From assembly GCF_053078305.1 (NCBI RefSeq), contig NZ_CP166879.1: DNA of 64,000 nt. One strand, 5' to 3'. The translations under genes and the position numbers were made by a program. Positions 6,285-61,070 of this stretch are shown here, piece by piece. Below the pieces are notes generated by a model that was not told the DNA's origin, did not search any database, and saw only the letters and a list, made by a program, of their open reading frames with translations. Position 1 is the stretch's first letter. Every line of letters starts with the position of its first letter.

Positions 6285-6311
6285 AAAACAACAGGCACCC
6301 CGGAGGGTGCC
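6285..6311 (-). terminator. Intrinsic terminator-like hairpin ~45 nt upstream of J start
   Basis: Minus strand CAGGCACCC-TCCG-GGGTGCCTG followed by TTGTTTTT. Confidence 0.45.
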
Positions 6312-6327
6312 TGTGTCATGACGGAAT

Positions 6328-6488: not shown

Positions 6489-6566
6489 GCTTCAGCCACA
6501 CCACAACATCCTGCTCATTTACGCCACTGGTACCCTGGCGGTCATCCGTTCTGTAAACCTGCGACA

Positions 6567-6722
6567 GAAAAAGTCTGAATTTCTTCACATTTTCTGTACG
6601 TTCCCGTGGCAGATATCATTCCGGGGCGTTACAGTTTTTTCGGGTCAATAAAAACAAAACTCCTTGAACGTTAATCTTCATCGGTTCTGTCCCGCAGTCT
6701 CCGGACTCTGCGGGATTTTTTT
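6567..6722 (+). ncRNA. Candidate small RNA mini-cassette, copy 2 of 3
   Basis: Same 5' box (AAGTCTGAATTTCTTCACATTTT), TATCAT at ~6614, hairpin CCCGCAG...CTGCGGG plus T-run at ~6690-6722. Confidence 0.3.
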
Positions 6723-6795
6723 ATCCCTTAACCCCGGCATGATGTTTTCTGTCTTCTGCCACAGATACCCGGCAAGCTCCCTGCACCTCTGCAGC

Positions 6796-6950
6796 AAAAA
6801 ATTTCTGAATTTCTTCACATTTTCGCAAAATCCATGTGGCGCTTATAATTTCGCTGCGTTAATGTTTTTCTGCCCAAAAAAATAACTCCATAACGTTAAT
6901 CTTCATCGTTATTTCCCGCAGCTCCGCTAACTCTGCGGGATTTTTTTTAT
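6796..6950 (+). ncRNA. Candidate small RNA mini-cassette, copy 3 of 3
   Basis: Same 5' box, consensus TATAAT at ~6844 with TTCGCA 16 nt upstream, hairpin CCCGCAG...CTGCGGG plus T8 at ~6916-6950, abutting the stop of I. Confidence 0.35.
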
Positions 6951-6952
6951 TT

Positions 6953-9192: not shown

Positions 9193-10347
9193 TCAGAACT
9201 GATAAGTCATACCCACAGCAACGATATTATCTGTCGCAACACCGGCTTTCCGGGTAAATTCACTTTCATCAATCAGGTTAATTTTATAATCAACATAGGT
9301 GGACATATTCTTGTTAAAGTAATAAGTCGCACCGACATCAATATATTTAACCAGATCCTGATCGCCATGGTTCACACCACCAACCATAACATCCTGTCCG
9401 CGGGACTGAAGGTAGGCAAGGGACGGGCGCAGACCAAAATCAAACTGATACTGAACAACGGCTTCGATATTCTGAGCTTTATCCGCAACACCTTGATCAC
9501 CAAAGGTCGTCATATTCTGGGTTTCAGAATACACTGCTGCCAGATACAGGTTATTGGCATCATATTTAAGACCAGTTCCCCAGAATTCAGCATGTTTACC
9601 TTTTGCCACACTACCTGAGTCAACTGTTTTTTCTCCAACCTTTTTACCTGATTCAGGATCAAGAACATCTGCAGTACCGTTCAACCCCTGAACCTGCTTA
9701 TCGGTACGATCTGACTTGGTATACGCAGCGACAAAACCAAAACCATCAAACTCATAGCTGGCCGAGAAACCATACCCGTCGCCATTAGCCTTCTGAAGGT
9801 CATCACGCTCATTTTTGCCCTGATACTGCGCCGCAAAATTCAGACCATCAACCAGTCCGAAGAAGTCTGTATTACGGTAAGTCAGGACACCGGAAGTTCG
9901 GGCCGTCATAAAGTTATCGGTCTGCGTCCAGCCATCACCACCAAACTCAGGCAGTACGTCAGTATATGATCCGACATCGTAAGCAATACCATAGTTACGT
10001 CCGTAATCAATGGTACCAACATCTGCAAATCTCAGACCTGCAAATGCCAGACGGGTTTTATTTCCCGCGGAACCTTCAGATTCCGTTTTGTTACCAGAGA
10101 ACTGGTATTCCCACTGACCAAATCCGGTCAGTTGATCATTAATCTGCGTTTCGCCTTTAAAGCCGAGACGAGCATAAGTCTGGTCTCCGTCATTACCTTT
10201 ATCATCCGAGAAGTAATGCAGAGCGGTTGCACGCCCGTAAAGATCCAGTTTATTACCATCTTTATTATAAACTTCTGCTGCCTGCGCCCCCGCAGCAAAC
10301 ATCACTGCCACTGCTACAGCAGAAAGTGCCACTGTCATTTTTTTCAT
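9193..10347 (-). CDS. OmpC/OmpF/NmpC-family general porin (prophage moron)
   Basis: 384 aa with signal peptide; [15 protein letters not shown]... and C-terminal ...YVDYKINL...F typical of enterobacterial 16-strand porins; AT-rich upstream region 10348-10545. Confidence 0.9.
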
Positions 10348-25641: not shown

Positions 25642-25989
25642 TCAGGGTGCAGAAGGACTAAAGATAAACGTTTTCTTCACGCCTTTACGCGGCCTGTCCT
25701 TCTCAAATCGCCATTTTGCCATCGCCTTTACAACCTGCTCATCAAACAGATGGTGCGGCTCTGAACGGATAAACTCAATTCGGGTGACAGTACCATCAGC
25801 ACCAATATCAAACTTCACATCAACCCGTCCCTTTATATAATTTGCCGCTGCATAGGCCGGATATTGTGGTAATGCCTTAACCAACTGTCGGGGCATATCT
25901 GTTTTATGTTGCGTACAGCCCATAACCAGAGAAGACAACAAAATAATTAACGGAAGATTTCTTTTCATTTTCATTTTCATTCCCGGCAC
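25642..25989 (-). CDS. TonB C-terminal-domain lipoprotein (moron in the bor slot)
   Basis: Signal peptide with lipobox VMGC; ...LPQYPAYAAANYIKGRVDVKFDIGADGTVTRIEFIRSEPHHLFDEQVVKAMAKWRF... matches the TonB_C signature. Confidence 0.7.
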   Translation of the reverse strand: MPGMKMKMKRNLPLIILLSSLVMGCTQHKTDMPRQLVKALPQYPAYAAANYIKGRVDVKFDIGADGTVTRIEFIRSEPHHLFDEQVVKAMAKWRFEKDRPRKGVKKTFIFSPSAP

Positions 25990-31149: not shown

Positions 31150-31960
31150 TGCGGGCTTTTTTTATCCATAAGAAAGCCCCTCCGGAGAGGGGCTGGAGTA
31201 GCGCTATGTACCGTTCATTGCATGATGCCGGGTGCCTCCCGGTGAGTTCAGCCCGGTGCCACCGAACCCGCGTCATTCTCGCTAACGATCATCAGAGACC
31301 ATACCGTACACCAGCCGCCCCTCCGCACAGGGGGATTCATCATGCAGAAATTTTTTAACAAATTCTCAGTCGGGAAGACAACCTTCAACTGACTGAATTG
31401 TGAGCAACATAGCATTTAACGGGGAACCTGTTTTCTGCAGTAAAAAGGCCCACCGGAGCGGACGGGCCTGGAAGGATAGCGGTCATGTGATGCCGGTTTC
31501 CCGGTAACTCAGCACCGGTATCTGAGTCAACGTTTTCTCTACTGGGTCATTTCCGATACGCCCTGCCTGCTGACAGGCTTTCATCACATCTGAAAATATA
31601 GCACCCTGACTGATACTGTAGTACCCAAGGTTCCAGAAACTGTGATGTATCCGGCACAGAAAAGCCCCTCCGGAGAGGGGCTGACGCTGCGTATCTGTAT
31701 CATCATGCGCATGGTGCCGGGTGCCTCCCGGTGAGTTCAGTATCAGCACCTGAACCCGCACAGAAAGGATAAGGGATGTAACCAAACACCTGTCGCTGAT
31801 ATGCCCCTCCGCTCAGGGGGATTCACCATGCCAGTTTCTTTTAACAAACTCCCCGCAAATCAGACAACTGTCAACCGTCTGAATTGTGAGACATTTAAAA
31901 TTTTCGGGGCAACAGGAAGACAATCATCACGACACCGGCAACCAGCGACCGGCACCAGAT
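31150..31960. repeat. Two diverged copies (~490-bp spacing) of a structured non-coding element
   Basis: Shared segments AAGCCCCTCCGGAGAGGGGCT, TGCCGGGTGCCTCCCGGTGAGTTCAG, CCCCTCCGCxCAGGGGGATTCA, CTGAATTGTGAG at ~31174/31664, 31223/31713, 31317/31804, 31394/31879. Confidence 0.6.
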
Positions 31961-32956
31961 TTAACGTATGTGCACACAACCTGAACCGGCATCAAAAAAC
32001 AAACCGTGCACTGACAGAAAACGGGAAACCTCCGTCCGCTGATCATCACTCATTAAGGACCACACAAAGGCGTTATGCTCATCTTCAAGTTTCCGTCTTC
32101 TTGTTTGCCTTACAAGCAACTCAGCCGTCACCTGTACAATGTCAATGACCTCCTTCTCTTCAGCAATGTACGGCCTGTTCCAGTTGTCTGTGTTAATCTT
32201 CTCCGTCACCGGCGCTGACTTTTTGCAAGTTTCCCCATTAAACCCGACGCCATAAACAACAACATCATCGCTTTGCTTTTCGTTATCAATAATGACGAAT
32301 AATACAGAAACCGATGTATCAGCGAACCCGCCTGAAATCTGAACCAACTCAACAACGCGGTTGCCAAAATACTGACGCATTGCCAGCTCACCACGCCTGT
32401 AACCAACCCCGGGAAAGCACAAAAAAAATGAAAATCTTGCCTTCATGCTCGCCAGAACATAAAACGCGTCATCCAGAACACCGGAGGTCTTTTTATAAGG
32501 CATCATCGCTGAAATCTTCTCCCTGATATCCGCGCTCTGTGCTTTGTACTGTAGCGAAAAAGGCGGATTCATGATGACACAATCGAACGTGTCCGTGTCA
32601 CTGACATCATCGATGGCGTTGAAGAAATTTTCATTGACCGTCTTCACTGTGGCATCCGGGAAATTATCCGGGATATGCACCAACGGAGAGGCCTGTATAT
32701 CCACAGCATACAGACTTCCCACCGTGAGAAACTGCTCCAGTTGCCCGGAGCCACACGCACCATCAAAAATACTCAGGGGCAGATCACCACAATATTCCCG
32801 CACTTTTTCAGCGACAAACCGACGCAAAGGAACGGACGTGATGTACTCTGCGTATTTTCTGGCGACATCGCGATTATTGGACTCCTGAAAAACCATTTGT
32901 GAAAGGCTCTGTGGTTGATATGCGCCGGGCGTGGCGCGGAGGCAAAAAAGGCCCAC
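31961..32956 (-). CDS. DNA N6-adenine methyltransferase, gamma-like motif order (orphan)
   Basis: FDGACGSGQL (motif I) followed by VIMNPPF (motif IV); start may be internal at ~32896. Confidence 0.7.
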   Translation of the reverse strand: MGLFCLRATPGAYQPQSLSQMVFQESNNRDVARKYAEYITSVPLRRFVAEKVREYCGDLPLSIFDGACGSGQLEQFLTVGSLYAVDIQASPLVHIPDNFPDATVKTVNENFFNAIDDVSDTDTFDCVIMNPPFSLQYKAQSADIREKISAMMPYKKTSGVLDDAFYVLASMKARFSFFLCFPGVGYRRGELAMRQYFGNRVVELVQISGGFADTSVSVLFVIIDNEKQSDDVVVYGVGFNGETCKKSAPVTEKINTDNWNRPYIAEEKEVIDIVQVTAELLVRQTRRRKLEDEHNAFVWSLMSDDQRTEVSRFLSVHGLFFDAGSGCVHIR

Positions 32957-32981
32957 AAAAGCGAGCCAGGAAAAATAAGTG

Positions 32982-33058
32982 TGGTGCGTTGTACTGGATT
33001 CGAACCAGTGACCGATTGCTTAGAAGGCAATTGCTCTGTCCGGCTGAGCTAACAACGC
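32982..33058 (-). tRNA. argO: tRNA-Arg (anticodon TCT), argO-like
   Basis: Cloverleaf read by eye; anticodon loop CTTCTAA; GGTTCGAATCC T-arm; CCA end. Confidence 0.8.
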
Positions 33059-33071
33059 AGTGTACAGATAA

Positions 33072-33148
33072 TGGACCGCCATCGAGGACTCGAACCCCGC
33101 GCAACCAGCTTCGAAGGCTGGCGCTCTATCCCGATGAGCTAATGGCGG
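33072..33148 (-). tRNA. argN: tRNA-Arg (anticodon TCG), argN-like
   Basis: Anticodon loop CTTCGAA; GGTTCGAGTCC T-arm. Confidence 0.75.
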
Positions 33149-33155
33149 TATGTGA

Positions 33156-33231
33156 TGGTGGCCCTTGCTGGATTTGAACCAGCGACCTGGCGATTATGAG
33201 TCGCTCGCTCTCACCACTGAGCTAAAGGGCC
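33156..33231 (-). tRNA. ileZ: tRNA with CAT anticodon, ileX-like (tRNA-Ile2), ileZ-like
   Basis: GGCCCTTTAGCTCAGTGG...GACTCATAATCGC...GGTTCAAATCC...CCA; close to E. coli ileX. Confidence 0.75.
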
Positions 33232-33271
33232 GGGCGCAGGATAATAACGGTACGTAACTAATCCTGCAATA

Positions 33272-34330
33272 TCATCCGTTCTGACTGGCTAAATCCTGAA
33301 CTTCCCTGACCGTCTGCTCAAAACGTTCAGTCTCCAGCTCAACGCCAGTTGCACGACGCCCCAGCGCCATCGCTGCTTTGACTGTCGAACCCGACCCCAT
33401 GAAAAAATCTGCAACCAGGTCACCCGGACGACTGCTCGCGCTGATTATCTGCTGCAGCATTTCTGCCGGTTTTTCGCACGGATGTTTCCCGGGATAGTAC
33501 TGCACCGGTTTATGCGTCCACACATCGGTGTACGGCACCTGCGCCGTCACGCCAAAATACCGCCGCAGATGCTTATATTCACTCTGCAGTTCCGTATAGT
33601 GTCGGTTCAGTTCACTGTATGTGCTGACCAGTTGGTGATGTGGCTTTTCCAGTTCTCCGCGCTGATGCTTCTCTTCTGCCACCCGGGCAAACAGCGCCTG
33701 TAATTTCAGATAATCGCTTTCGTCCGGTAGCTGCCACTGACTGGCACTGAACCAGTGCGACACCATGTTTTTCTTTCCTGTGGCATCAGCAATCTGTTTT
33801 GCCGTTATCCCCAGGGCAGCACGTGCATCACGAAAGTAAGCAATCAGCGGGGCCATCACATGCTGTTTCAGTGCCCTGCCCTTCGCCTCATACCCGGCAT
33901 CTTTCGGACGATACGGCCCCTGATAATGTTCCGCGAACAGAATGCGCTCTGTGGCGGGGAAATACGCCCTCAGGCTTTCCTTGTTGCACCCGTTCCAGCG
34001 TCCGGACGGCTTCGCCCAGATAATATGGTTCAGCACACTGAAGCGTTCACGCATCATGATTTCAATGTCAGATGCCAGGCGATGGCCACAGAACAGGTAA
34101 AGACTTCCGGCAGGTTTCAGCACCCGCCAGAACTGCGCCAGACACTGGTCCAGCCACTTCAGGTAATCATCGTCGCCCTTCCACTGGTTATCCCAGCCCT
34201 CAGGCTTCACTTTAAAGTACGGCGGGTCCGTGACTATCAGGTCAACAGAATTTTCGGGTAACGACCGGATAAATTCCAGGCAGTCGGCGTTGATTAACTC
34301 ACAACTGGATATTTTTACAGTATTAAGCAT
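33272..34330 (-). CDS. DNA methyltransferase, beta-class (N6-adenine or N4-cytosine), orphan
   Basis: 352 aa; DPPY (motif IV) near N-terminus, FFMGSGST (motif I) near C-terminus. Confidence 0.85.
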   Translation of the reverse strand: MLNTVKISSCELINADCLEFIRSLPENSVDLIVTDPPYFKVKPEGWDNQWKGDDDYLKWLDQCLAQFWRVLKPAGSLYLFCGHRLASDIEIMMRERFSVLNHIIWAKPSGRWNGCNKESLRAYFPATERILFAEHYQGPYRPKDAGYEAKGRALKQHVMAPLIAYFRDARAALGITAKQIADATGKKNMVSHWFSASQWQLPDESDYLKLQALFARVAEEKHQRGELEKPHHQLVSTYSELNRHYTELQSEYKHLRRYFGVTAQVPYTDVWTHKPVQYYPGKHPCEKPAEMLQQIISASSRPGDLVADFFMGSGSTVKAAMALGRRATGVELETERFEQTVREVQDLASQNG

Positions 34331-37321: not shown

Positions 37322-37594
37322 TTATAGCTGCTTCTGAATATCATCAACAGGTAATCCTGCCAACTCTCTTACCTCAGAAAGAAGAGAAAGGCTTACAACA
37401 ACCTCATTACTTCGCATAACAAAACCACATTGAAAAGAACCATCACTGTTTCTGTAAACAACAACCGGGCGCGTGCTCTCATAAAACCCCGGGATCAAAC
37501 TGGCTGGGATTTTCACAACACCTCCTGACGTAAAGGAAATGAAATGCATTATCGCTTCTCTCGGACTATAACCATGAAAAGAGACGCATTTCAC
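37322..37594 (-). CDS. Hypothetical nin-region protein
   Basis: Track ORF; no family recognised. Confidence 0.3.
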   Translation of the reverse strand: MKCVSFHGYSPREAIMHFISFTSGGVVKIPASLIPGFYESTRPVVVYRNSDGSFQCGFVMRSNEVVVSLSLLSEVRELAGLPVDDIQKQL

Positions 37595-37772: not shown

Positions 37773-38144
37773 ATGCGAATTTTCAAAAACGCCTGGTTTG
37801 AACGTTTCGCCCGAAAACATCGGATTTCCGATAAATCGCTGCGCGAAATCGTGGAGCAGGCCGATAAGGGGATCATATCCGCAAATTTGGGTAGTGGTGT
37901 CATTAAACAAAGATTAGCCCGAAGTGGTGGCGGAAAATCAGGCGGTTACCGGACAATAATTTTTTACCGCGTTGCAGAAAAAGCCTTTTTCATCTACGCA
38001 TACGCAAAGAATGAACGAGAGAATATCACCGCTATAGAGGAAAATGCTTTTCGAAAAGCCGCTCCCCATGTCCTCAATCTTACTGATGAACAGCTGGCAC
38101 AATTGATTCTACAAGGCCAGTTCACGGAGGTACCCAATGAGTAA
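37773..38144 (+). CDS. Type II toxin, Gp49/RelE-like (DUF891-like)
   Basis: 123 aa; ...GGYRTIIFYRVAEKAFFIYAYAKNERENITAIEE...; 8-nt overlap with downstream HTH gene. Confidence 0.6.
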   Translation: MRIFKNAWFERFARKHRISDKSLREIVEQADKGIISANLGSGVIKQRLARSGGGKSGGYRTIIFYRVAEKAFFIYAYAKNERENITAIEENAFRKAAPHVLNLTDEQLAQLILQGQFTEVPNE

Positions 38145-38454
38145 AAATTACCGCAGTGATGCACTTGCATCTGTACATGAAATGATGGAGTCACTCCATG
38201 ATATCGGTGCAATCACAAAACAAACTATGCGCGAATTCGATGAAACTTGTCTTCAGCCTGCGCCGGTAATGTCTCCAGAAAGGATCCGTGCACTGCGAGA
38301 ACGAGAGCATCTGTCTCAACCTGTTTTTGCCAGATACCTCAACGTCAGTAAAAACCTGATATCAGACTGGGAACGAGGAGTGAAACGCCCGGGAGGTGCA
38401 GCTCTTCGGCTTCTTTCAGTTGTCGAGAAAAACGGGATCCAGGTAATATCCTGA
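38137..38454 (+). CDS. XRE-family HTH antitoxin / regulator
   Basis: 105 aa; ...LREREHLSQPVFARYLNVSKNLISDWERGVKRP... helix-turn-helix. Confidence 0.6.
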   Translation: MSKNYRSDALASVHEMMESLHDIGAITKQTMREFDETCLQPAPVMSPERIRALREREHLSQPVFARYLNVSKNLISDWERGVKRPGGAALRLLSVVEKNGIQVIS

Positions 38455-38556: not shown

Positions 38557-38712
38557 TTACTCCTCAGGTTCGTAAGCTGTGAAGACAGCGACCTCCGTCT
38601 GGCCGGTTCGGATTCGTACCTCGCAGAGGTCTTTCCTCGTTACCAGTGCCGTCACTATGACGGTTAAACAGATGACGATCAGGGCGATTAACATCGCCTT
38701 TTGCTGCTTCAT
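38557..38712 (-). CDS. hokD: Hok-family type I toxin (HokD/RelF-like)
   Basis: MKQQKAMLIALIVICLTVIVTALVTRKDLCEVRIRTGQTEVAVFTAYEPEE, internal start of track ORF (a mok-like upstream extension). Confidence 0.9.
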   Translation of the reverse strand: MKQQKAMLIALIVICLTVIVTALVTRKDLCEVRIRTGQTEVAVFTAYEPEE

Positions 38713-38983
38713 AGCCTGCTTCTCCTTGCCTTTCGGCACGTAAGAGGCTAACCTACATTTGTGAGACATAGATTGGGCCTCAGATTAATGTTAAGCGTCT
38801 TGCAGGACGCGAAATGTTAACTGGGGCTTTTCTCTATCTGCCTTTTGGTGTTCATGCCTGAGACAGATAGCCTCAAGCACCCGCAGCGATTTTACAGAAA
38901 TAAGTTATTATTTTCTATCTCACCCTTCACTTATCTCATTCCTAGCTATACTCATCGTTCACACAACATTAAAGGGCATAAAA

Positions 38984-39633: not shown

Positions 39634-39983
39634 GATTTATCTCCCTGAAGCATGGCTTCGCGGCAGTCGTTCCAGCCTTCAGCATAATCACTATACGCAA
39701 GAGGCCAACCGTTTATGTATTCACGCGGCAACTTATCAGGCACTGGCGGGGCGGCGTATAGCTGGTGCGTTCCATCAGGCAGCGAGTGACCAACATACTC
39801 ACCGAACCCGTCAACACACATGCACCCATCTTCAATAATACATGAAGCTACAGGCTTCGCTTCCAGCGATGCCAGTGCGATAAGAGCCAGCTCACGAATT
39901 TCACCGCCGTCTATATCGTCAATGTCATCGCGGCCAGAAATGTTAGCCAGCCATTGCAGTCGCTCTTTGGTAATAGTGGTCAT
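39630..39983 (-). CDS. Hypothetical nin-region protein
   Basis: 117 aa; stop/start overlap with neighbours. Confidence 0.45.
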   Translation of the reverse strand: MTTITKERLQWLANISGRDDIDDIDGGEIRELALIALASLEAKPVASCIIEDGCMCVDGFGEYVGHSLPDGTHQLYAAPPVPDKLPREYINGWPLAYSDYAEGWNDCREAMLQGDKS

Positions 39984-39984
39984 C

Positions 39985-40329
39985 TCACTCTCCTTCTATG
40001 CGAATACCAGCAGCAGTCAGTACTGCATTGACCTCATCAGCGTAGTAGTACGTTAATCCACTTGATGATTTAGCCAGCTTGAATGGTTCTGGTAACTTCA
40101 CTGTGCGGGACTCCTGCTCGTCGATACGCTGTTTTGCTTCCTCCAGTTCATCCAGCAAATCAGCGATAATATCCACTTCACGATGACGGATTTCACGCTT
40201 AAACGCAGCCAAAGCTGCATCACAATCCTGCTCAGCGTTTGGACTGTCTGGTTTCTCCTGATACCACGCCAGCATCGACCGATAGTTTTGTGCTGCCTCA
40301 CGCAGCGCCTGATAATTAATCCCACTCAC
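39985..40329 (-). CDS. Hypothetical protein (start uncertain)
   Basis: Possible GTG start with AAGGAGG RBS inside track ORF 39985..40509. Confidence 0.35.
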   Translation of the reverse strand: MSGINYQALREAAQNYRSMLAWYQEKPDSPNAEQDCDAALAAFKREIRHREVDIIADLLDELEEAKQRIDEQESRTVKLPEPFKLAKSSSGLTYYYADEVNAVLTAAGIRIEGE

Positions 40330-42728: not shown

Positions 42729-43469
42729 TCAGTTCCTGTGCTGGCTGACGTTCGGACGCCAGCTCTCCCAGTTAAACGTCACCCAGCGACCACCGTTCAT
42801 GGACATGCGGTCCATCACCCGCTCGCCGAGAAGTGTATTCATCGCTGCATGGTTAAGATTTGTCAGCATCCCCACACTGAGTAACGATGCCGTTCTGCGG
42901 TCAACAATCTGATTCAGCGTGACCTGCTCATTACGCGTATCCCGTTGCATGCCAATTTCATCCAGTACCAGCAGGTCAACGCCACACAATCCCTGCAAAA
43001 ATTTTTCGCCCGAGTTTTTGTTGTCGTAGCTGCCATGTAACGCCAGCATCACATCCGCCACTGTTATCACAATCACACTGCGACCTTTCGCCAGAAGGTG
43101 GTTGCCAATAGCCGCCGCCAGGTGGTTTTTTCCTGTGCCAGGCCTGCCACTGAAAACAAAATTCGTACAGCCGCCTTCCAGCTCTGCCGCAATGGATTTC
43201 GCCTGACTCAGGGCATGGCGCTGACCATCGTTCTGCACCCGGTAGTTACCGAACGTACACTTCCGGTGAAGCGGCTGGATACCGGAGCGGTTAATGATTT
43301 TTTCAACCCGCGTCTGATGATTCAGACGATTAACCTCCTCGCTTCGCTTACGCCCTTCAGCAAGCTGCCATTCCCGCCACTCCGCCACCGTACGGTACGG
43401 AGGGATTGCATCCTGCGGCACAAATCTGCTGACTCTTGCCAGAACACCACCTGACGTAATGTTTTTCAT
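42729..43469 (-). CDS. DnaC-like helicase loader (AAA+ ATPase)
   Basis: 246 aa; Walker A GRPGTGKNHL, Walker B LLVLDEIG. Confidence 0.85.
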   Translation of the reverse strand: MKNITSGGVLARVSRFVPQDAIPPYRTVAEWREWQLAEGRKRSEEVNRLNHQTRVEKIINRSGIQPLHRKCTFGNYRVQNDGQRHALSQAKSIAAELEGGCTNFVFSGRPGTGKNHLAAAIGNHLLAKGRSVIVITVADVMLALHGSYDNKNSGEKFLQGLCGVDLLVLDEIGMQRDTRNEQVTLNQIVDRRTASLLSVGMLTNLNHAAMNTLLGERVMDRMSMNGGRWVTFNWESWRPNVSQHRN

Positions 43470-43475
43470 GATGCG

Positions 43476-44465
43476 CTACCCCCTGAAACCCGGCGGAATT
43501 TCGGTATCCGGTTCAGAAATATGATTCACGCAACGCTGCGCGGGACCACGCCACAGTCGAATAACCAGTTCATCCCATTTCTCACGGAGTTTTTCCGGGC
43601 TCTTGATGTTTTTTATCCAGAACGGATCCCGTTGTGCCCGGCTGAACATTTCGCAAATTTGTCTGTGACTTCTTCCATCCAGCATCCGCATTGTGCGCAC
43701 GTCATTGGCCCACGCCGTCCAGTTGGGCTCTTTCGGTCGCGTGATCTCACCATCGTCACTGGCAGCCTGTTCGTACAGGTTTACAACCCGCCCCCAGATC
43801 CACTGCGCACACGTCAAATCCTCCCGGGTTCCCCACTGGCGTTTTTTCACGCTGAACACAACTGCATCAGGATGGCGGGTTAAAAACGCCTGTTCAGCCG
43901 TCAGCTCGTCCGGTTGCGAAGCGTCCGGACAAGAGAGTTTTTTATTCTCTGTTGTATTCTCTGTTGTATTCTCTGTTGTATTCTCTGTTGTATTCTCTGT
44001 AGGATCATCGGGCCATTTTGACCTGATGACATTGGGCCGTTTTGAACCAATGGAACGTTTCATTTTGACCTCTTCCATCGTGTCATTTTGACCTGATGGA
44101 GTGGCGCATTTTGACCCGATGGATTCGTTCACTTTGCCATCATCTAAAAGCGCGCTATCGTAGTTAATTGTGTAAAAATTAGTCATATCACGCTTCGATT
44201 TATTGAGCTTTTCGCTACGCAAAAGCCCCAGCGCTTTCAGACTTGCAAACGCACGCTTTAACGTTGACTCTGACCAGAACGGAAACTGTTCCAGCCATTG
44301 TTCCGTTGTGTTGTAAATCCAGCGAACGCCATCACATTCCATGCCGGAACTGGTATCCCTCAACCAGTAATGCAGTTGCTGCAACACAATGGCTTCGTTT
44401 AAACCAATCTTCATCGCCAGCTGTGTGTTTATAACCAGCGGGCGTTCAGCAAAAAGAAGGCTCAT
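43476..44465 (-). CDS. Replication initiator (O-like) containing origin iterons
   Basis: Internal start in track ORF 43476..44507; central TENTTENTTENTTENTTEN encoded by 12-bp tandem repeats. Confidence 0.65.
   Translation of the reverse strand: MSLLFAERPLVINTQLAMKIGLNEAIVLQQLHYWLRDTSSGMECDGVRWIYNTTEQWLEQFPFWSESTLKRAFASLKALGLLRSEKLNKSKRDMTNFYTINYDSALLDDGKVNESIGSKCATPSGQNDTMEEVKMKRSIGSKRPNVIRSKWPDDPTENTTENTTENTTENTTENKKLSCPDASQPDELTAEQAFLTRHPDAVVFSVKKRQWGTREDLTCAQWIWGRVVNLYEQAASDDGEITRPKEPNWTAWANDVRTMRMLDGRSHRQICEMFSRAQRDPFWIKNIKSPEKLREKWDELVIRLWRGPAQRCVNHISEPDTEIPPGFRG
43941..44001. repeat. About five tandem 12-bp repeats (TTCTCTGTTGTA), candidate origin iterons
   Basis: Seen directly in sequence inside the initiator gene. 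Confidence 0.7.
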
Positions 44466-44967
44466 AATTCCATCCGGCTTTTTGTTGGTACTGGTGACGA
44501 TAGGCACGCTTGAAAGCGATTGCTTTTTCTATAAGCTCGTCTGTCTCACGTTCCACAACAGCTGGATCTGCAAAAAGCAGCCCGGACTCCACCACATCGC
44601 CATATTCTTTGTTTAACCCGGCAATCATGTACGTAATGCTTTTTCCGTCAGTAATTTCGCGGTACAACCTGAAATCACTAATCCGGATAGCCTCCATAAT
44701 TGCCGGAATCAGCGCCGTGAATTTTTCTCGCTTATCCCTGGTGTCGATAGCCTTCCAGCGTTCGAATATCTTCACCCGGTTAACGCCAAGCGCACGCTGA
44801 TCAACCCCGCCATCATCAAGCGTGACACGCTGAACATCGATGTTCGGGCGTTCCTGTAGAGCCCAGAAGGCTTCAGTAATTAATATCGTCGCCTGCTCCT
44901 GCGTCATTCCTGGTCGGCTTATCCAGGCATCCAGGGCATCGCGTGCCTGCTCAAGGGTGATTTTCAT
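44446..44967 (-). CDS. Hypothetical protein in the cII slot
   Basis: 173 aa between cro-like gene and initiator. Confidence 0.4.
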   Translation of the reverse strand: MKITLEQARDALDAWISRPGMTQEQATILITEAFWALQERPNIDVQRVTLDDGGVDQRALGVNRVKIFERWKAIDTRDKREKFTALIPAIMEAIRISDFRLYREITDGKSITYMIAGLNKEYGDVVESGLLFADPAVVERETDELIEKAIAFKRAYRHQYQQKAGWNYEPSFC

Positions 44968-45181
44968 TGTTCAACCGCCCCGCCCGCTTCGTCTTACGAT
45001 ATTCGTCATAAACTTTGGGGTCATACTGAAGCTCCCCGCCGGATGCCTCTTGCAGGCGCATCGCGCGACCTTCAGGTACTAGCTCCCCTTTCCAGCTATA
45101 AAGCGAAGCCAAACGAATACCAGCAGCTTGTGCGAGTTTTGTTTTTGAACCGAAATACAAAAGTGCGTCAGTTTTAAGCAT
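44951..45181 (-). CDS. dicC: Cro-like repressor DicC
   Basis: MLKTDALLYFGSKTKLAQAAGIRLASLYSWKG...; divergent from dicA. Confidence 0.85.
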   Translation of the reverse strand: MLKTDALLYFGSKTKLAQAAGIRLASLYSWKGELVPEGRAMRLQEASGGELQYDPKVYDEYRKTKRAGRLNNENHP

Positions 45182-45264
45182 TTAAAGCACCCTGAATGTT
45201 AGTCATGACTAACAAAATAGATGTTAACAAAAACATAGTCAATAAGATTTAGCATTAGCTAACT

Positions 45265-45672
45265 ATGGATACAAAAAATTTAACCATTGGCGAACGCATT
45301 AGATATCGCCGAAAAAGCCTCAAATACACCCAAAGGTCTCTTGCTAAAGCCCTGAAAATTTCTCATGTATCGGTTTCACAATGGGAACGGGATGACAGCG
45401 AACCGACAGGGAAGAATCTTTTTGCCCTCAGCAACGTACTGCAGTGCTCGCCAACATGGATTCTATTTGGCGATGAAGACAAGCAGCCATCACCACCTAT
45501 TGAGGAGCCAGTTGCTCTATCCCCCAAAGAACATGAGCTCCTTGAGCTTTTTAATGCATTGCCTGAATCAGAACAGGATGCTCAGCTCACCGAGATGCGC
45601 GCCCGAGTAAAAAATTTCAACAAACTCTTTGAAGAGTTATTAAAAGCCCGTCAACGAACAAACAAAAGATAA
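45265..45672 (+). CDS. dicA: Immunity repressor DicA (HTH XRE)
   Basis: MDTKNLTIGERIRYRRKSLKYTQRSLAKALKISHVSVSQWERDDSEPTGKNLFALSNVLQCSPTWILFGDEDKQP... Confidence 0.9.
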   Translation: MDTKNLTIGERIRYRRKSLKYTQRSLAKALKISHVSVSQWERDDSEPTGKNLFALSNVLQCSPTWILFGDEDKQPSPPIEEPVALSPKEHELLELFNALPESEQDAQLTEMRARVKNFNKLFEELLKARQRTNKR

Positions 45673-45838
45673 CGCAATCAATGCGTTATCTTTTTGATCG
45701 CTAAAAATGTTAGCCATAACAAACAAAAGCACTTGACCGGATTGTTAGTCATAGCTAATCTTACTTACATCAAGACACCGCACGGTGTTCTCAGCAAACA
45801 GTTCCGCTACCCCGGCGTTAAGGGGAAATGAGGTCAAC

Positions 45839-45991
45839 ATGGATACGCTCAATCTTGGCAACAACGAATCTCTGGTATGCGGCGTGTTTCCCAACCAGGA
45901 CGGCACGTTTACCGCGATGACGTATACCAAAAGTAAAAAGTTTAAAACCGAAGCTGGCGCGCGTCGCTGGTTAGCCAGAAACACTAACTGA
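45839..45991 (+). CDS. ydfA: YdfA-like small protein
   Basis: MDTLNLGNNESLVCGVFPNQDGTFTAMTYTKSKKFKTEAGARRWLARNTN. Confidence 0.55.
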   Translation: MDTLNLGNNESLVCGVFPNQDGTFTAMTYTKSKKFKTEAGARRWLARNTN

Positions 45992-46249
45992 TTAGCACCA
46001 GTAAAAACAGGTTGCCACTGGTTAATTTACCCTGAAAAGTCAGGGCATAACACGAAAGCGCACGGAGAAGCTCGTCTCTCTGTACTTTGTCGCTAAATTT
46101 AATTCGACCGTGCGCTTCCGGTTGTGGCAATCCGCGAAATGGCGCGGCGGTAAGTATGGCTGGGGTTTCCTCCATTGCTCCAGAAAATGCACCGGGTTGT
46201 CAGGTTGACCATACGCTTAAGTGACAGCCCCGCCACAATACCCATGTGT

Positions 46250-46300
46250 AGTCTTTGGTGGCATCAGTTCTACTCCGTGACTGCTCTGCCACCCTTTTTA
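46250..46300 (+). ncRNA. dicF: DicF-like small RNA
   Basis: ...TGGTGGCATCAGTTCTACTCCGTGACTGCTCTGCCACCC followed by TTTTT; similar to my recollection of E. coli DicF with terminal hairpin. Confidence 0.55.
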
Positions 46301-46788
46301 AAGTGAATTTTGTGATGCGGTGAATGCGGCTAAGCGCACGCGGAACAGTTAAAACCGTAAAGTGGTCTTTTACGGGGCGTAACGGGCATACTTCTGTATT
46401 CCGGCGTTAATTGTTAACTGGTTAACGTCACCTGGAGGCACCAGGCACTGCATCAACAAAGTTCACTTCGGTGATGAAGGGTAAGAGAAAATGTTGAATG
46501 TAGCTATTGAAAACCAGAACGGGTGGAATTATAGTGCACCTGCACCTCATAAAACGGGTGCCGGGCGTGGAAACCCGATGATGATCAACGCGCATAACCG
46601 CGCTCAGGCGGTTTTTTTTATGCGTCAAGCACAGCCACATTCAAATTATGGTGGGGCGTGCAGGGCAGCTGCAAGGCTGGCCGGCTCCGTTGGTCACCGG
46701 TATTTCCACCCCTGTACGTCTCACCACCTTTATGGTCGTGGAAAACCTCGGTGGTGAGTTATTTAAACTGATCAACGAGGCTGCCATC

Positions 46789-47346
46789 ATGGCTACTACC
46801 CTTACCCTTTCTCACCCTGACGTAACCATCGAAAATGGTCGCGCAGTCACCACGTCTGTTGCAGTTGCAGAGTTCTTCCACAAACTGCATAAAAACGTCA
46901 TTCAAAAAATTGAAGCTCTGGAATGTTCCGACGAATTCACTGAGCTTAATTTTCAGCCCAGCGAATACACCGACACAACCGGTCGCAAACTCCCAATGTA
47001 CCAAATCACCAAAAACGGCTTCGTTTTCCTGGTGATGGGCTTCACCGGCAAAAAAGCCGCTGCATTTAAAGAAGCCTACATCGCTGAGTTCGATCGCATG
47101 GAGAAAGAACTGCGCCAGAATAACGCCCCGTCTCCCGACAAAATGATTCACGGGGACGGACGTACCCTGGTTATCCGTCTCGACGAACACGGCAATATCA
47201 AATTCACTGAAACCGTTCCGGACGGCGCAATGGTCTGCACCCTGGATACCTTCCAGTTTTATCTGGAAAAACAAGGCTGGACTCTTGTAAACCGGAGCGC
47301 AATTAAAAATATGACTGTGGAGCAATTACTAAAAATTCATTGTTGA
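46789..47346 (+). CDS. Rha-family phage regulatory protein
   Basis: Internal start MATTLTLSHPDVTIENGRAVTTSVAVAEFFHKLHKNVIQKIEALE... in track ORF 46648..47346. Confidence 0.65.
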   Translation: MATTLTLSHPDVTIENGRAVTTSVAVAEFFHKLHKNVIQKIEALECSDEFTELNFQPSEYTDTTGRKLPMYQITKNGFVFLVMGFTGKKAAAFKEAYIAEFDRMEKELRQNNAPSPDKMIHGDGRTLVIRLDEHGNIKFTETVPDGAMVCTLDTFQFYLEKQGWTLVNRSAIKNMTVEQLLKIHC

Positions 47347-47356
47347 GGACGCGATA

Positions 47357-47545
47357 ATGGAAACGTTATTACCAAACGTTAATACGTCTGAAGGGTGTTT
47401 TGATATTGGTGTTCTGCTCAGTAACCGGGAGTTTACTGAAGATGCCATTAAGATGAGAAAATATGAGCCTTATCTTCTCAATGATAATTCCATACTCTCC
47501 AGAATTGCCCTTCTTAAACTTGGTATTTTCGGGGGGCAGCAGTGA
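47357..47545 (+). CDS. dicB: Cell division inhibitor DicB-like
   Basis: METLLPNVNTSEGCFDIGVLLSNREFTEDAIKMRKYEPYLLNDNSILSRIALLKLGIFGGQQ. Confidence 0.8.
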   Translation: METLLPNVNTSEGCFDIGVLLSNREFTEDAIKMRKYEPYLLNDNSILSRIALLKLGIFGGQQ

Positions 47546-47730
47546 CTTCTGCATTTGCACTGGTAATGACTGTTTTTCTTATAACGGGTGAGCCACAGAA
47601 TGTGATTACCGGAATTTATGCCAGTAAAGAATCATGCCTCCGGGCAAGAGACGAGCAAAAAATTTCTGGCGAATGCCTCCCGTTAAAAAAAGTATCGCTG
47701 TACCTGAATAACGAAATACCGGCTGGATAA
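47542..47730 (+). CDS. ydfD: YdfD-like lysis protein
   Basis: MTSAFALVMTVFLITGEPQNVITGIYASKESCLRARDEQKISGECLPLKKVSLYLNNEIPAG. Confidence 0.65.
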   Translation: MTSAFALVMTVFLITGEPQNVITGIYASKESCLRARDEQKISGECLPLKKVSLYLNNEIPAG

Positions 47731-47822: not shown

Positions 47823-50261
47823 ATGAGCACTGATAAAGAAGAATTTTCGCTATATTGCGAAGCAAAAAATGACAAGGTCAGAAAACGCCTTGGGATTAAA
47901 GGGGGTTTTTACTGGACTACAGCAAAAAAATTATCTGTTGCCATCTCACGGTGCGTTGTTGCAATGGACGAGGCAGGCTACGACGCTGATGATTTCAAAA
48001 AACCTGTCCGCGTCCATTTCCCCGTTGTGAATGACCTTCCACCGGAAGGCGTGTTTGATACCGAATTCTGCAACCGCTATGAAAAAGGCGGGGAAGATGG
48101 CATCACAATGATATTTATAGCGCCTTCCCCCTCAGTTCAGGACAAACCAGCCAGCACTGACAATACCAACGTCAATGGCGAAGACATGGCTGAGATTGAG
48201 GATAATATGCTCCTGCCAATTTCCGGTCAGGAACTGCCCATTCGCTGGCTTGCGCAACATGGCTGCGAAAAACCGGTAACGCACGTTTCACGGGAAGAAC
48301 TTCAGGCATTACATATCGCACGAGCTGAAGAACTGCCGGCTGTTACTGCCCTGGCTATTTCCCACAACACAAAGCTGCTCGACCCGCTGGAGATTCGCGA
48401 CCTTCACAAACTGGTACGCGACACAGACAAAGTTTTCCCTAATCCCGTTAATTCCAGTCTGGGGTTAATGACTGCTTTTTTCGAAGCATACCTGAACGCT
48501 GACTATACCGATCGAGGTCTGCTGACAAAAGAGTGGATGAAAGGAAATCGTGTTTCTCGCATCACCCGCACGGCTTCCGGTGCAAATGCCGGTGGCGGAA
48601 ATAAAACGGATCGTAATCCTGATTTAGTACACACCCTCGATACTCTGGATGTGGAGATTGCAGCAGCCACACTTCCGATGGATTTTAATATTTATGAAAT
48701 ACCCGTGAGCGTTTATCGTCGCGCAAAAGAAATCGTCCTGAAAAAAGAAAGTCCGTTCAGGGAATGGTCCCCAGCACTTCGCGCAACCCCTGGTATCCTG
48801 GACTATTCCCGCGCAGCTATTTTTGCACTTATCCGGAGCGCCCACCCTGAGTTTTATCACTACCCGGGACGTCTTCAGGGGTATATCAATGCCAACCTGA
48901 CAGAGACCGATCATGAGAATCCCACAACTGAAACTCTCACGGCTGCCCGGCATACACCGGAAAAAGATATCCTGGAAGAAATTAACGGAGGACTGGCTGC
49001 TGAGTGCAAAACAGAAGAAGAAAAAAATGATGAAGAAAACCCGCAACCATCTGGCGCAATGGCAGATGAACAGGCAACGGCTGAAACAATGGCAGCGGAT
49101 ACAGTTGAACATCATCAGGACCCGCAGCCGCTGGATGACAAGTCACAGGTAAAAGTTACTGCTGAAGAAGTAAATAAAATTATGGAGGCAGCAGACATCA
49201 GTCGACCAGATGCCGACAAATTGCTTGCCGCTTCTCGTGGTGAGTTTGTTGAAGGGATTAGCGACCCGAATGATTCGAAATGGGTTAAGGGGATTGAAAC
49301 CTGCGATTCTGTGAACCAGAACCAGCAAGAAACGGAACAGAACGGTCAGAAAGCGGAACAAAACAGCCCAAATGCGTTACAAAACGAGCCAGAAACGAAA
49401 CAACCTGAACCAGTCGTGCAACAGGAAGAGGAAAAAGTTTGTACCGCATGCAATCAGACTGGTGGTGGTAACTGCCCTGATTGTGGCGCAGTGATGGGTG
49501 ACGCAACCTACCAGGAGACATTCAACGAAGAAAGCCAGGATGAAGCCCGGGAAAAAGATCCGGAGGAAATGGAAAGTGCCGGACTCCCGAACAAGGAGTG
49601 CACCGAAGGCGATCAACATGCCAATGGCAATAATGAAACAGGCGAGACAGCAAATCCCTTAATTAAGGTGAACGGTCATCGTGAAATCACATCCACCAGC
49701 AGGTTGTGGCACCATCTGATGATTGACCTTGAAACAATGGGCAAAAATCCTGACGCACCAATAGCCTCAATAGGCGCTGTATTTTTCGATCCACAAACCG
49801 GAGAGCAGGGGCCTGAATTCAGCAAAATAATTGATATGGGTACATGTGGCGGCACTGTAGACATAAGCACCATCGAATGGTGGCTTCAACGCTCTGGCGA
49901 AGCCCGTGCCGCCATTTTAGCTGATCGAATACCGCTTGATGATGCGCTTTTACAATTACGGGAATTTATAGACGAAAACTCCGGTGAGTTTTTTGTTCAG
50001 GTCTGGGGAAATGGAGCCAACTTCGACAACGTGATTTTACGCCGTTCATATGAACGGCAGGAGATCCCCTGCCCGTGGCGTTACACCAATGATCGCGATG
50101 TAAGAACGATGGTCGCTCTGGGGTTGGTGATGGATTTCGATGCCCACAACGTCACCACATTTGAGGGTGAACGCCATAATGCCCTGCACGATGCGCGTTA
50201 CCAGGCAAAATACGTTTCAGCTATCTGGCAAAAACTGTTCCCGAGTCAGGCTGATTTTTAA
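47823..50261 (+). CDS. Large early-region protein with C-terminal DEDDh-type 3'-5' exonuclease domain
   Basis: 812 aa; C-terminal MIDLETMG..., ...WGNGANFD..., ...[11 protein letters not shown]...; acidic linker; [16 protein letters not shown]ys cluster. Confidence 0.6.
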
Positions 50262-50319: not shown

Positions 50320-50523
50320 ATGAGCAGCTTATTTTTAACCGAAGATGAATTGCTAATATTAACGGGCTGCAAATATGCAAGCCACCAGCGCAACTGGTTA
50401 ATAAAAAATGGGCTTCCGTTCTATACCAATCGTAGTGGAAAACCGATCGTCAGTCGGGAACTGTTTACCTGTAGAAACACTTTACCACCACGTGAGGCTG
50501 AACCTGATTTCGGTGCGATCTAA
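50320..50523 (+). CDS. Excisionase-like protein (DUF4224-like)
   Basis: 67 aa immediately upstream of integrase; ...LTEDELLILTGCKYASHQRNWLIKNGLPF... Confidence 0.5.
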   Translation: MSSLFLTEDELLILTGCKYASHQRNWLIKNGLPFYTNRSGKPIVSRELFTCRNTLPPREAEPDFGAI

Positions 50524-51548
50524 TGGGAAGACGAAGGAAAAATCCCGAACACGAAAAATTACCGCCAAAGGTATACCCCAATAAATATAGTTATGTATGG
50601 AAACCGACATCCAGAGAATCTGTAACCTTAACTGCAATCGAGGATGGTTTAGCCGCATTATGGAAAAAGTACGAAGAAACAATTAACCATCGCGATCGGG
50701 CAATGACATTTGGGCGTTTGTGGGAAAAATTTCTCGCCAGCGCCTATTACAGCGATCTTAGTCCCAGAACGCAAAAAGATTATCTGCAACATCAAAAAAA
50801 GCTGCTGGCCGTATTCGGTAAGGTGCTGGCCGATTCTGTAAAACCAGAGCACATCAGACGATACATGGACAAAAGGGGCGAGCAGAGTAAAACGCAGGCA
50901 AACCATGAAAAAAGCAGCATGTCACGCGTTTACAGTTGGGGGTATGAACGAGGGTATGTAAAGGCTAATCCTTGTGCCGGTGTAAGTAAATTCAAGGCCA
51001 AAAACCGAGAGCGCTATGTGACTGACAAAGAATACCAGGCCGTATTAAGCGTGGCTCCTGTGCCTGTTTTTATCGCAATGGAAATTGCATACCTGTGCGC
51101 AGCAAGGATTTCCGATGTGTTGTCTCTGAAATGGGAACAGATCGGAAACGACGGGATCTTTATCCAGCAAGGTAAAACAGGAAAGAAACAGATAAAAGCC
51201 TGGAGTCCCCGTCTGCAATCAGTTATAGAAAAAGCTAAACAGCTACCCAAGTCAGCCTATGTAATCAGCAATCAGTACGGCAACCGTTACATGTATAAAG
51301 GATTTAATGAAATGTGGGTTGAGGCAAGAAATTTGGCTGGACAAATATCAGGGATCGCGACGGATTTTACATTCCATGACCTTAAAGCCAAGGGGATATC
51401 AGATTACGAAGGTAGTAGCCGGGATAAGCAACTTTTCTCTGGTCACAAGACCGAAGGACAGGTGCTAATCTATGATAGAAAAGTAAAGATCTCACCCACA
51501 CTGGATGTACCATTACCCCAGAATATTCCAACAAAATATTCCAAGTAA
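50523..51548 (+). CDS. int: Tyrosine integrase
   Basis: 341 aa; phage integrase family; adjacent to tRNA 3' end. Confidence 0.9.
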   Translation: MGRRRKNPEHEKLPPKVYPNKYSYVWKPTSRESVTLTAIEDGLAALWKKYEETINHRDRAMTFGRLWEKFLASAYYSDLSPRTQKDYLQHQKKLLAVFGKVLADSVKPEHIRRYMDKRGEQSKTQANHEKSSMSRVYSWGYERGYVKANPCAGVSKFKAKNRERYVTDKEYQAVLSVAPVPVFIAMEIAYLCAARISDVLSLKWEQIGNDGIFIQQGKTGKKQIKAWSPRLQSVIEKAKQLPKSAYVISNQYGNRYMYKGFNEMWVEARNLAGQISGIATDFTFHDLKAKGISDYEGSSRDKQLFSGHKTEGQVLIYDRKVKISPTLDVPLPQNIPTKYSK

Positions 51549-51600: not shown

Positions 51601-51690
51601 TGGTGGAGAGAGGGGGATTTGAACCCCCGGTGGAGTTGCCCCCACTCCGGTTTTCGAGACCGGTCCGTTCAGCCGCTCCGGCATCTCTCC
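51601..51690 (-). tRNA. serU: tRNA-Ser (anticodon CGA), serU-like; prophage attachment site
   Basis: GGAGAGATGCCGGAGCGGCTGAACGGACCGGTCTCGAAAACCGG...GGTTCAAATCCCCC...CCA read from minus strand. Confidence 0.85.
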
Positions 51691-52757: not shown

Positions 52758-53069
52758 AATTCTAAAAATTCGCTTCTTAGCGCAATGTCACTAACCTTAG
52801 TTGAACATTGTTTTTTAACGGATAGCGGGTTTTTAACATCTTAAGCGCCCTCGACCTTTATGGTTGAGGGCGTTTTGCTATGAATGCCATCACCATTTTC
52901 CCCTCGATTATAAAACTTGAGTTATTCAGTAGTCTCCCCTCTTGCAACTCACACCCAAAACTGCCTAACGAAAAGTTATTAATTTTCAATCATATTGCTA
53001 TCAGGATTTACATTTTTTCGCTGTGCTAGAAAGGGCGCATTTATGTTAGCTCGTTCAGGGAAGGTAAGC

Positions 53070-61070
<8,001 letters not shown>

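Follow-up and report, generated by a model that had tools for sequence, protein, structure and literature searches.

In the Qin prophage of Escherichia coli K-12, DicA represses dicBp and dicC, and DicA and DicC together form a bistable switch (PMC10448788). K-12 DicA has no Ala-Gly site and not the length needed for cleavage of the RecA type; repression is relieved by the Qin protein Rem, a DicA antirepressor, and noise and heat or urea provide further routes through the switch (PMC10448788). Lemire et al. assigned DicA to the same group as the Gifsy repressors, whose inactivation depends on small antirepressors under LexA control, and described cross-talk in which the antirepressor is supplied in trans (PMC3121763). 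RNase III and RNase E release DicF from the longer operon RNA (PMC10448788); the 3′ part of DicF pairs with ftsZ and pykA and the 5′ part with xylR (PMC5069750), and DicB protects against phages that use ManYZ (PMC6832061). Here we analyse a stretch of 64,000 nucleotides (the window, to whose numbering all positions refer) from contig NZ_CP166879.1 of assembly GCF_053078305.1, and read its region 44951–47730, with a probability of roughly 85%, as the immunity switch and early-left operon of a Qin/CP-933P-type lambdoid E. coli prophage inserted at a tRNA-Ser gene. Each gene of this region, and dicF as well, exceeds the curated Pfam or Rfam threshold of its family; the features on which this reading rests are collected in Table 1.

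We find divergent dicC and dicA genes whose products are, respectively, 97 and 92% identical to DicC and DicA of K-12, separated by an 83-bp control region which is almost identical to that of Qin and carries the same operator half-sites. dicC, the Cro analogue, is the first gene of a rightward operon that continues with genes for CII-like, O and DnaC-like proteins. The sole domain of DicA, the CI analogue, is a Cro/C1-type helix–turn–helix (HTH) domain (HTH_3, residues 12–66), with no match to peptidase S24 at E ≤0.01 in Pfam; judged by its domain content, DicA is an HTH-only repressor of the non-cleavable type. A conventional CI- or C2-type repressor, cleaved in the SOS response, might be expected from a gene layout that resembles those of lambda and P22 immC, and some relatives are indeed annotated ‘repressor protein C2’. 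That alternative is nevertheless extremely improbable: it is contradicted by the domain content of this 135-residue protein, by its close identity to a K-12 DicA that has no Ala-Gly site (PMC10448788), and by the grouping of DicA with the non-cleavable Gifsy repressors (PMC3121763), of which Gifsy-1 GfoR is nearly equal in length and 34% identical to the protein found here.

The operators argue for the same assignment. The Qin-type operator is an inverted repeat, TGTTAG-N6-CTAACA, and its only occurrence without mismatch in the window is the 18-bp palindrome TGTTAGTCATGACTAACA, which abuts the −10 hexamer of dicCp. Two further sites lie at dicBp, one with a single mismatch (45708–45725) and one with two (45743–45760), the latter between a −35 hexamer TTGACC (45733–45738) and a −10 hexamer TAATCT (45756–45761), both of which are conserved in K-12. 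Just two more operator-like sites with at most two mismatches occur elsewhere in the window. Shuffled sequences contain at least as many sites when up to three mismatches are allowed, so that the informative feature of the good sites is where they lie, and those beginning at 45197, 45708 and 45743 are predicted DicA operators in the OR/OL layout of a lambdoid phage. Logic and layout match those of lambda, with its CI/Cro switch and PL operon (kil, exo, xis, int): the repressor gene is read with the left operon, both promoters have operators, and the left operon holds a division inhibitor, recombination genes, xis and int. The repressor differs from that of lambda in not cleaving itself; a homologue of N was not recognized, and DicB and DicF stand in the place of Kil.

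The leftward operon retains the core order ydfA, dicF, dicB, ydfD of Qin. It departs from the full K-12 order ydfA–ydfB–ydfC–dicF–dicB–ydfD in two respects: alignment with K-12 and with the prophage of STEC434 shows that ydfB and ydfC (about 520 bp, located between ydfA and dicF in K-12) are absent, and a block of about 0.9 kb containing isrK, a C4 element and a rha gene, which K-12 does not have, lies between dicF and dicB. Going by gene order, this is a variant arrangement of the dicBF operon, and variant arrangements are already present in other prophages (see also PMC5069750). The dicF match covers the full covariance model (positions 1–52) with no non-canonical pairs, and a TTTTT run follows directly on the 3′ side. 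Within DicF, the 3′ 41 nt are identical to the K-12 allele at 37 positions, with the hairpin kept and one compensatory change in the stem (C-G to U-A), whereas the 5′ 12 nt are unrelated to those of K-12 (2 of 12 positions shared). Because the 5′ end differs in this way, targets of the xylR type are probably not shared. In the part that pairs with ftsZ, manual pairing shows that the ACUCCG core is kept and that a U-to-C change introduces a mismatch between AGUUCU and the ftsZ sequence GAAACU; the calculated DicF–ftsZ duplex energy could not be distinguished from that of shuffled sequences and is not used as evidence. DicB is 61% identical to its K-12 counterpart, and the YdfD homologue, 48% identical to K-12 YdfD, is encoded by a gene that overlaps dicB by 4 nt, as in K-12. 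Just past dicF, at 46306–46460 (+), a partial STnc100-like element scores below threshold; it is conserved in K-12.

Thus the main assignments of a first-pass annotation, made from the sequence, are borne out: it had described a Qin-type DicA/DicC switch with an HTH-only, DicA-type repressor in place of a cleavable CI, a DicF-like small RNA (sRNA), DicB and a YdfD-like, putative lysis protein, and had proposed the alignment to K-12 dicF given above. It had not noticed the loss of ydfB and ydfC, the unrelated 5′ end of DicF or the IsrK/C4 leader ahead of rha. The same organization, with dicC, a ydaT-like gene and O on one side and dicA, ydfA and so on through dicB, ydfD, exo, xis and int on the other, is shared with other elements that have DicA-type immunity, namely mEp460_ev081, PhiR42_1, the PPompW prophages, the STEC434 prophage and CP-933P; in the alignment the PhiR42_1 repressor is identical to K-12 DicA. 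What distinguishes the present locus from these relatives is its own combination of a missing ydfBC and an inserted isrK–C4–rha segment. Relative to Qin itself, the surrounding prophage keeps the replication, late and morphogenesis genes that Qin lost.

For the lysogenic state we infer, from homology and from the work on K-12, that DicA would bind TGTTAG-N6-CTAACA at the divergent dicC/dicA promoters (the OR analogue) and at the two sites of dicBp (the PL analogue), and would thereby silence both the rightward operon of dicC (Cro-like), the ydaT-like gene (CII-like), O and the dnaC-like gene, and the leftward operon of ydfA, dicF, the nested isrK–C4–rha block, dicB, ydfD, the recE-like gene, xis and int. 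For the subsequent steps we infer that, DicA having no autocleavage domain, induction would proceed through an antirepressor or through switch noise and not through RecA-mediated cleavage. Upon derepression DicC would lock the switch in the lytic state, DicF would be excised from the long transcript and repress ftsZ through its conserved 3′ part, DicB would block division through MinC as well as ManYZ-dependent entry of phage DNA, and YdfD would promote lysis; DicF, DicB and YdfD may in this way take the role of the kil and exclusion genes of lambda. The rha gene forms a separate, nested cassette with a promoter of its own, in which an IsrK/C4 leader would gate translation as in isrK–orf45–anrP of Gifsy-1 and c4–ant of P1.

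In particular, the leader of this cassette is homologous to a characterized one. In Gifsy-1 the leader holds the mRNA translationally inactive until IsrK, acting in trans, opens the fold, and the cargo protein AnrP raises transcription of a phage operon (PMC4825925). The leader found here is colinear with Gifsy-1 isrK–orf45 through the −10 region, the sRNA, its terminator, the AATTATGGTGGGGCGT...CCCTGTACGTCTCACCACC element (C4/orf45), the ribosome-binding site and the start codon. The promoter-like site ends 6 nt upstream of the first position of the isrK match, its −10 hexamer aligning with the isrK promoter region of Gifsy-1, and IsrK carries an intrinsic terminator at 46596–46613 with a T-run. 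The sequence GUGGAAA is present once upstream of C4, in isrK, and once downstream of it, and both copies are complementary to UUUCCAC in C4, as read from the sequences. Complementarity of this kind, a C4-family RNA and a following antirepressor-type gene are also found in the immI region of P1 (c4, icd, ant). This locus differs from immI in that its match to the c4-a1b1 target (46529–46581, overlapping IsrK) remains below threshold (RF03163, 24.7 bits against 46.7; E 0.0015), that no icd homologue was identified, and that the cargo is a Rha-domain protein in a lambdoid, not a P1-like, phage. Duplex energies add nothing to these comparisons: that of IsrK with C4 was not distinguishable from shuffles, those of C4 with its upstream and downstream flanks gave modest z-scores (−2.4 and −3.5), and none is used as evidence. 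Homology of the leader is shown by the alignment, and gating of translation by IsrK and C4 would follow the Gifsy-1 pattern.

The open reading frame (ORF) behind the leader, for which the earlier proposal of a Rha-family regulator holds, may start at either of two ATG codons, one inside the C4 element (232 residues) and one at 46786 preceded by GAGG (186 residues). The frame equivalent to orf45 is here fused in frame with the Rha ORF, with no stop codon, whereas orf45 of Gifsy-1 ends in AUGA. The protein matches PHROG 995 together with anti-repressor families at its N- and C-termini. Its N-terminal domain is 40% identical to the product of a P22 segment (39689–39994) which is unannotated in the record and which we take to be ant. 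The last 75 residues give a weak match, at 23% identity, to STM2616 of Gifsy-1, identified as AnrP by its position downstream of Q; no N-terminal similarity between the two proteins was found, so that the cargoes differ over their N-terminal halves. The setting differs as well, the isrK cassette of Gifsy-1 lying downstream of Q and the present one in the early-left operon. Leader and Rha domain also occur at other positions in many Shiga toxin (Stx) phages, in mEp460 and in Salmonella phages, and therefore form a mobile regulatory cassette and not a part specific to the DicA switch. Just the last ~15 nt of rha remain ahead of dicB in K-12, with the junction in a short imperfect repeat (ACAAAGTTCA / AAAAATTCA; window 46400–46470 and 47330–47357 compared with K-12), which suggests that the isrK–C4–rha block was deleted in the Qin lineage, insertion being a further possibility.

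Could the Rha protein itself inactivate DicA, with stress-induced IsrK opening its translation and so triggering or reinforcing induction in place of Rem? The N-terminal domain is common to families and records labelled antirepressor, the C-terminal 75 residues match an ‘anti-repressor’ PHROG and, weakly, STM2616, the cassette has a good promoter of its own, and Gifsy-1, in which the cargo of the homologous leader raises transcription of a phage operon (PMC4825925), likewise has a DicA-like repressor. We nonetheless regard this scheme as doubtful. The Rha protein is a candidate binder of DicA, its N-terminal half is unrelated to AnrP, and some members of the Rha family are annotated simply as transcriptional regulators. 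The same cassette is found in phages that, to judge by their names, appear to have other immunity types, such as Stx2a phages, which argues against a DicA-specific partner. Moreover, K-12 has no such cassette and yet its switch flips via Rem and noise (PMC10448788). That the Rha product acts on DicA at all seems to us distinctly doubtful, and the more general form of the idea, in which an IsrK/C4-gated Rha protein is the flipper of the DicA/DicC switch in DicA-type prophages without a recognizable rem, we consider quite unlikely. Were the latter true, the promoter of the cassette would feed stress signals (stationary phase and oxidative stress, as for IsrK of Gifsy-1) into induction, positive feedback would come in addition from dicBp read-through, and K-12 Qin would have lost this device by a deletion sparing only the last ~15 nt of the gene.

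Other candidates for an inducer were sought throughout the window. tblastn revealed no homologue of K-12 Rem (best E 4.4) and none of Gifsy-1 GfoA or DinI. At the position that rem occupies in Qin there is, however, a 75-codon ORF whose comparison with a Rem-family alignment by hhalign gives a weak, partial match (probability 68.6%, E 4.6e-5, 33 columns) falling on the most conserved, C-terminal stretch of the family. This ORF has no Pfam match, its BLASTP E value against Rem is 0.31 with composition correction, and a search of a large protein database found as its homologues only six E. coli proteins, all nearly identical, from which no useful profile can be built. A regular-expression scan of the window detected no convincing LexA box: the one perfect CTGT-N8-ACAG (14502–14521) lies inside a tail chaperone gene, about one being expected by chance, and the LexA box that in Gifsy-1 stands ahead of a dinI–antirepressor (dinI–gfoA) operon in the nin region has no counterpart here, nor has that operon. 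A LexA-box-like sequence, TACTGTAAAAATATCCAGTT (CTGT-N8-CCAG), is located at 34305–34324 (−), where it overlaps the initial codons of the N6_N4 methylase gene. Neither of these two sites is near a candidate antirepressor. Possible routes to induction of this prophage, which the first-pass annotation had called potentially inducible, are the 75-codon ORF, the Rha cassette, a Qin-like prophage co-resident in the cell and acting in trans, noise in the switch, and heat or urea.

The structural and replicative genes around the switch are largely intact. Profiles are covered end to end by Q, the P21-type holin, lysozyme, Rz, both terminase subunits, the protease–capsid fusion, the head–tail connectors, the major tail protein, the tape measure protein, tail proteins M, L, K, I and J and the side tail fibre; the replication and integrase genes are full length; and the genes are as long as the counterparts annotated as intact by the NCBI Prokaryotic Genome Annotation Pipeline (PGAP) in strains N51 and JNEC-KY171. 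The portal gene alone falls into two parts: positions 1–451 of its profile fall on the ORF at 18826–20190 and positions 455–859 on the ORF at 17606–18829. The cause is a one-base frameshift in a G run (near 18826–18845), which has five residues here (G5) and six (G6) in YYZ-2008 and N51. JNEC-KY171, the nearest genome, has an identical portal sequence, which PGAP labels ‘frameshifted’. The ‘apparently complete’ replication, lysis, head and tail modules of the first-pass annotation therefore stand as far as the replication, lysis, terminase, capsid and tail genes are concerned; the portal gene and the left end of the prophage, which is outside the window, are the exceptions.

The same G5 allele recurs on the diverged backgrounds of BP-4795, Stx2c phage 1717 and Lys8385Vzw. 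BP-4795 is, going by papers that cite it, an infectious phage. Lys8385Vzw was recovered by induction, and images of its particles have been published (PMC6986202). Further, going by the alignment, exactly the intact portal sequence would result if tRNA-Gly slipped by −1 on the G run. Because the G5 allele is present in an induced and imaged phage and because a slip would restore the protein, the split can be called neither clearly disabling nor clearly harmless; it could reflect programmed frameshifting or phase variation, and its recurrence in G5 and G6 forms within this phage lineage makes it worth a look in that respect.

These findings bear on a further alternative, namely that the prophage is domesticated or defective like Qin and yields no infectious particles, its switch and dicBF genes being kept for benefits to the host such as phage exclusion and division control. 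We consider this possible although on the whole unlikely. It would fit with a portal gene whose copy in the nearest genome is a pseudogene according to PGAP, with a window in which neither a Rem, GfoA or DinI homologue nor a convincing LexA box was found and in which the left end and attL are not seen, and with the description of many O157-type prophages of such architecture as defective (PMC5069750). It is less easily reconciled with the identical G5 split of the three phages named above, with the slip that would restore the portal, with the full length of all remaining structural, lysis, replication and integration genes, and with the possibility that an antirepressor comes in trans (PMC3121763).

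Several observations also weigh against our preferred reading of the region as the switch and early-left operon of a Qin/CP-933P-type prophage, at least in so far as functions are carried over from K-12 and Gifsy-1. The altered 5′ 12 nt of DicF, together with the change at one ftsZ-pairing position, means that its target set may differ; DicB and YdfD differ considerably from their K-12 counterparts, on which the functional measurements were made; the searches of the window gave no clear homologue of a known antirepressor or DinI and no convincing LexA box; over its N-terminal half the protein behind the isrK/C4 leader is no orthologue of AnrP; and the portal frameshift may make the prophage defective.

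With regard to novelty, DicB and DicF had not been found in phage genome databases in 2016 (PMC5069750), and in 2023 Ragunathan et al. described mEp460_ev081, a functional temperate phage with dicB, dicF, dicAC and rem (PMC10448788). The first-pass annotation had seen its point of interest in the occurrence, within an apparently complete phage, of a module known from the defective Qin; that point had been anticipated by the publication of mEp460_ev081 (PMC10448788), and it is weakened further by the 153 phage records that match region 44951–47730, among them Tritos with an annotated DicF, and by a DicA in PhiR42_1 that is identical to that of K-12. The best of these records covers 58% of the region. 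Of 5426 complete E. coli genomes, 4774 contain parts of the region. No record holds the whole 2.8 kb in one high-identity block, the highest figure for an E. coli genome being 93.7%, in two pieces; the exact mosaic is thus not found elsewhere at high identity, which is normal for lambdoid phages. The module is a known one, correctly identified in an ordinary, possibly active prophage, and offers one more example, as the literature already states, of how dicAC–dicBF, known from the ‘cryptic’ Qin, normally serves a live lambdoid family as its immunity and early-left region. Its set of alleles (the DicF 5′ end, the diverged DicB and YdfD, the lack of ydfBC and of an obvious rem) could provide natural variants for the study of DicF target choice and be used in work on how non-cleavable DicA repressors are induced.

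Table 1. Features of the immunity and early-left region and of related parts of the prophage, with the matches or scans by which they were identified
Feature	Position	Strand	Basis
Portal gene, split into two ORFs (18826–20190 and 17606–18829)	17606..20190	-	PHROG 2271
75-aa ORF at the Qin rem position, weak Rem-like candidate	37322..37549	-	Lies between DUF968 gene and hok
DnaC/IstB-like helicase loader, P-equivalent	42729..43469	-	Pfam IstB_IS21 6.5e-16, Bac_DnaA
O-like replication initiator	43476..44507	-	PHROG 391 ‘replication initiation O-like’, profile 11–298 of 298
YdaT-family CII-like regulator	44446..44967	-	Pfam YdaT_toxin 9.8e-6; PHROG 163 ‘CII-like transcriptional activator’ 1.6e-40
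dicC, Cro analogue	44951..45181	-	Pfam P22_Cro 1.3e-11, 44.5 bits, cut-off 30.2
Perfect 18-bp palindromic operator TGTTAGTCATGACTAACA	45197..45214	.	Pattern search, dicC–dicA intergenic region
dicCp promoter-like site (PR analogue), TTGACT-17-TATTTT	45214..45242	-	Consensus scan
Weaker operator site	45247–45264		dicC–dicA intergenic region
dicA, CI analogue, 135 aa	45265..45672	+	Pfam HTH_3 3.8e-16, 59.3 bits
Terminator-like hairpin with 13-bp stem, across the dicA stop codon	45664..45694	.	Terminator scan
dicBp region (PL analogue), two operators	45708..45761	+	Pattern search; hexamers read from sequence
ydfA (DUF1391), first gene of leftward operon	45839..45991	+	Pfam 1.5e-29, 101.8 bits
dicF sRNA	46243..46294	+	Rfam RF00039, 61.1 bits, gathering score 48
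isrK promoter-like site, TTGAAA-17-TATAGT (10 of 12)	46507..46535	+	Promoter scan
IsrK-type sRNA	46542..46618	+	Rfam RF01394, 65.7 bits against 50
C4-type antisense RNA element, equivalent to Gifsy-1 ‘orf45’ leader	46644..46731	+	RF01695, 73.5 bits against 45
Rha-domain, antirepressor-like ORF	46648..47346 (232 aa) or 46786–47346 (186 aa)	+	Phage_pRha 3.2e-31, 108 bits
dicB, 62 aa	47357..47545	+	Pfam DicB PF05358 1.4e-36, 124.4 bits, profile 1–62 of 62
ydfD homologue (DUF1482, PF07358), 62 aa	47542..47730	+	6.6e-16, 58.4 bits, cut-off 25
Exonuclease VIII (RecE)-like gene, C-terminal 3′–5′ exonuclease domain	47823..50261	+	Pfam Exonuc_VIII 6.3e-34, Rv2179c-like 1.9e-62
Excisionase-like gene (DUF4224)	50320–50523	+	Pfam
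Tyrosine integrase	50523–51548	+	Pfam
tRNA-Ser (cga), right end of prophage	51601..51690	-	ARAGORN; Rfam tRNA

Among the genes of the rightward (PR-like) operon, the YdaT-family gene downstream of dicC may have a CII-like function by analogy with a described system (PMC9986795); the YdaT site known from CP-933P, TTGATT-N6-AATCAA, has only two matches in the window, each with two mismatches, both far from the switch and fewer than in shuffles. The O-like gene carries a perfect 12-bp tandem repeat of 4.8 units (43943–44000), which encodes a TENT repeat and probably represents the iterons of the replication origin.

The host is E. coli, as judged by the right flank, in which mtfA, tRNA-Asn and yeeJ are present and which matches complete E. 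coli genomes at up to 99.1% identity. Since the tyrosine integrase gene and a small excisionase-like gene, in the order annotated in STEC434, adjoin tRNA-Ser(cga), the prophage appears to be inserted there, that tRNA gene being the probable integration target. At the other end, position 1 cuts through a tail-fibre-assembly-like ORF that continues beyond the window, and the first 1.5 kb have no att repeat in common with the region of tRNA-Ser, which places the left end of the prophage outside the window.

Identity as an Stx-converting phage was considered and rejected, the ORF at the stx position (31961–32956) being methyltransferase-like and not StxA; no toxin gene was found at that position. 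After Q and a tRNA-Met/Arg/Arg cluster (32982–33231), the DNA contains two DNA methyltransferase-like genes (31961–34330, −). The late region has, upstream of a nanS-like esterase gene, two full matches to the STnc100 sRNA (31164–31374 and 31654–31860, −; 168 and 135 bits) separated by 280 bp. The nin-like region has a RelE-family toxin gene with an HTH partner (37773–38454, +) and a hok/sok type I toxin–antitoxin locus (38557–38882, −; sok 121 bits), both as in CP-933P-like prophages.

Finally, three features of the late region and one of the flank may be recorded. A small lipoprotein-like ORF with a TonB C-terminal domain (25642–25989, −) is situated between the lysis and terminase genes. 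A full-length porin gene of the OmpC/NmpC type (9193–10347, −; Porin_1, 480 bits) stands between tail genes M and L, an arrangement common to the close relative N51, and the gap of about 660 bp between tail genes I and J (6292–6952), which has no sizeable ORF, is likewise an unannotated gap in N51. Beyond the tRNA-Ser gene, the 2691-residue Ig-like/inverse-autotransporter adhesin YeeJ (52995–61070, +) is intact, whereas the copy in O157:H7 relatives is interrupted by IS1203.

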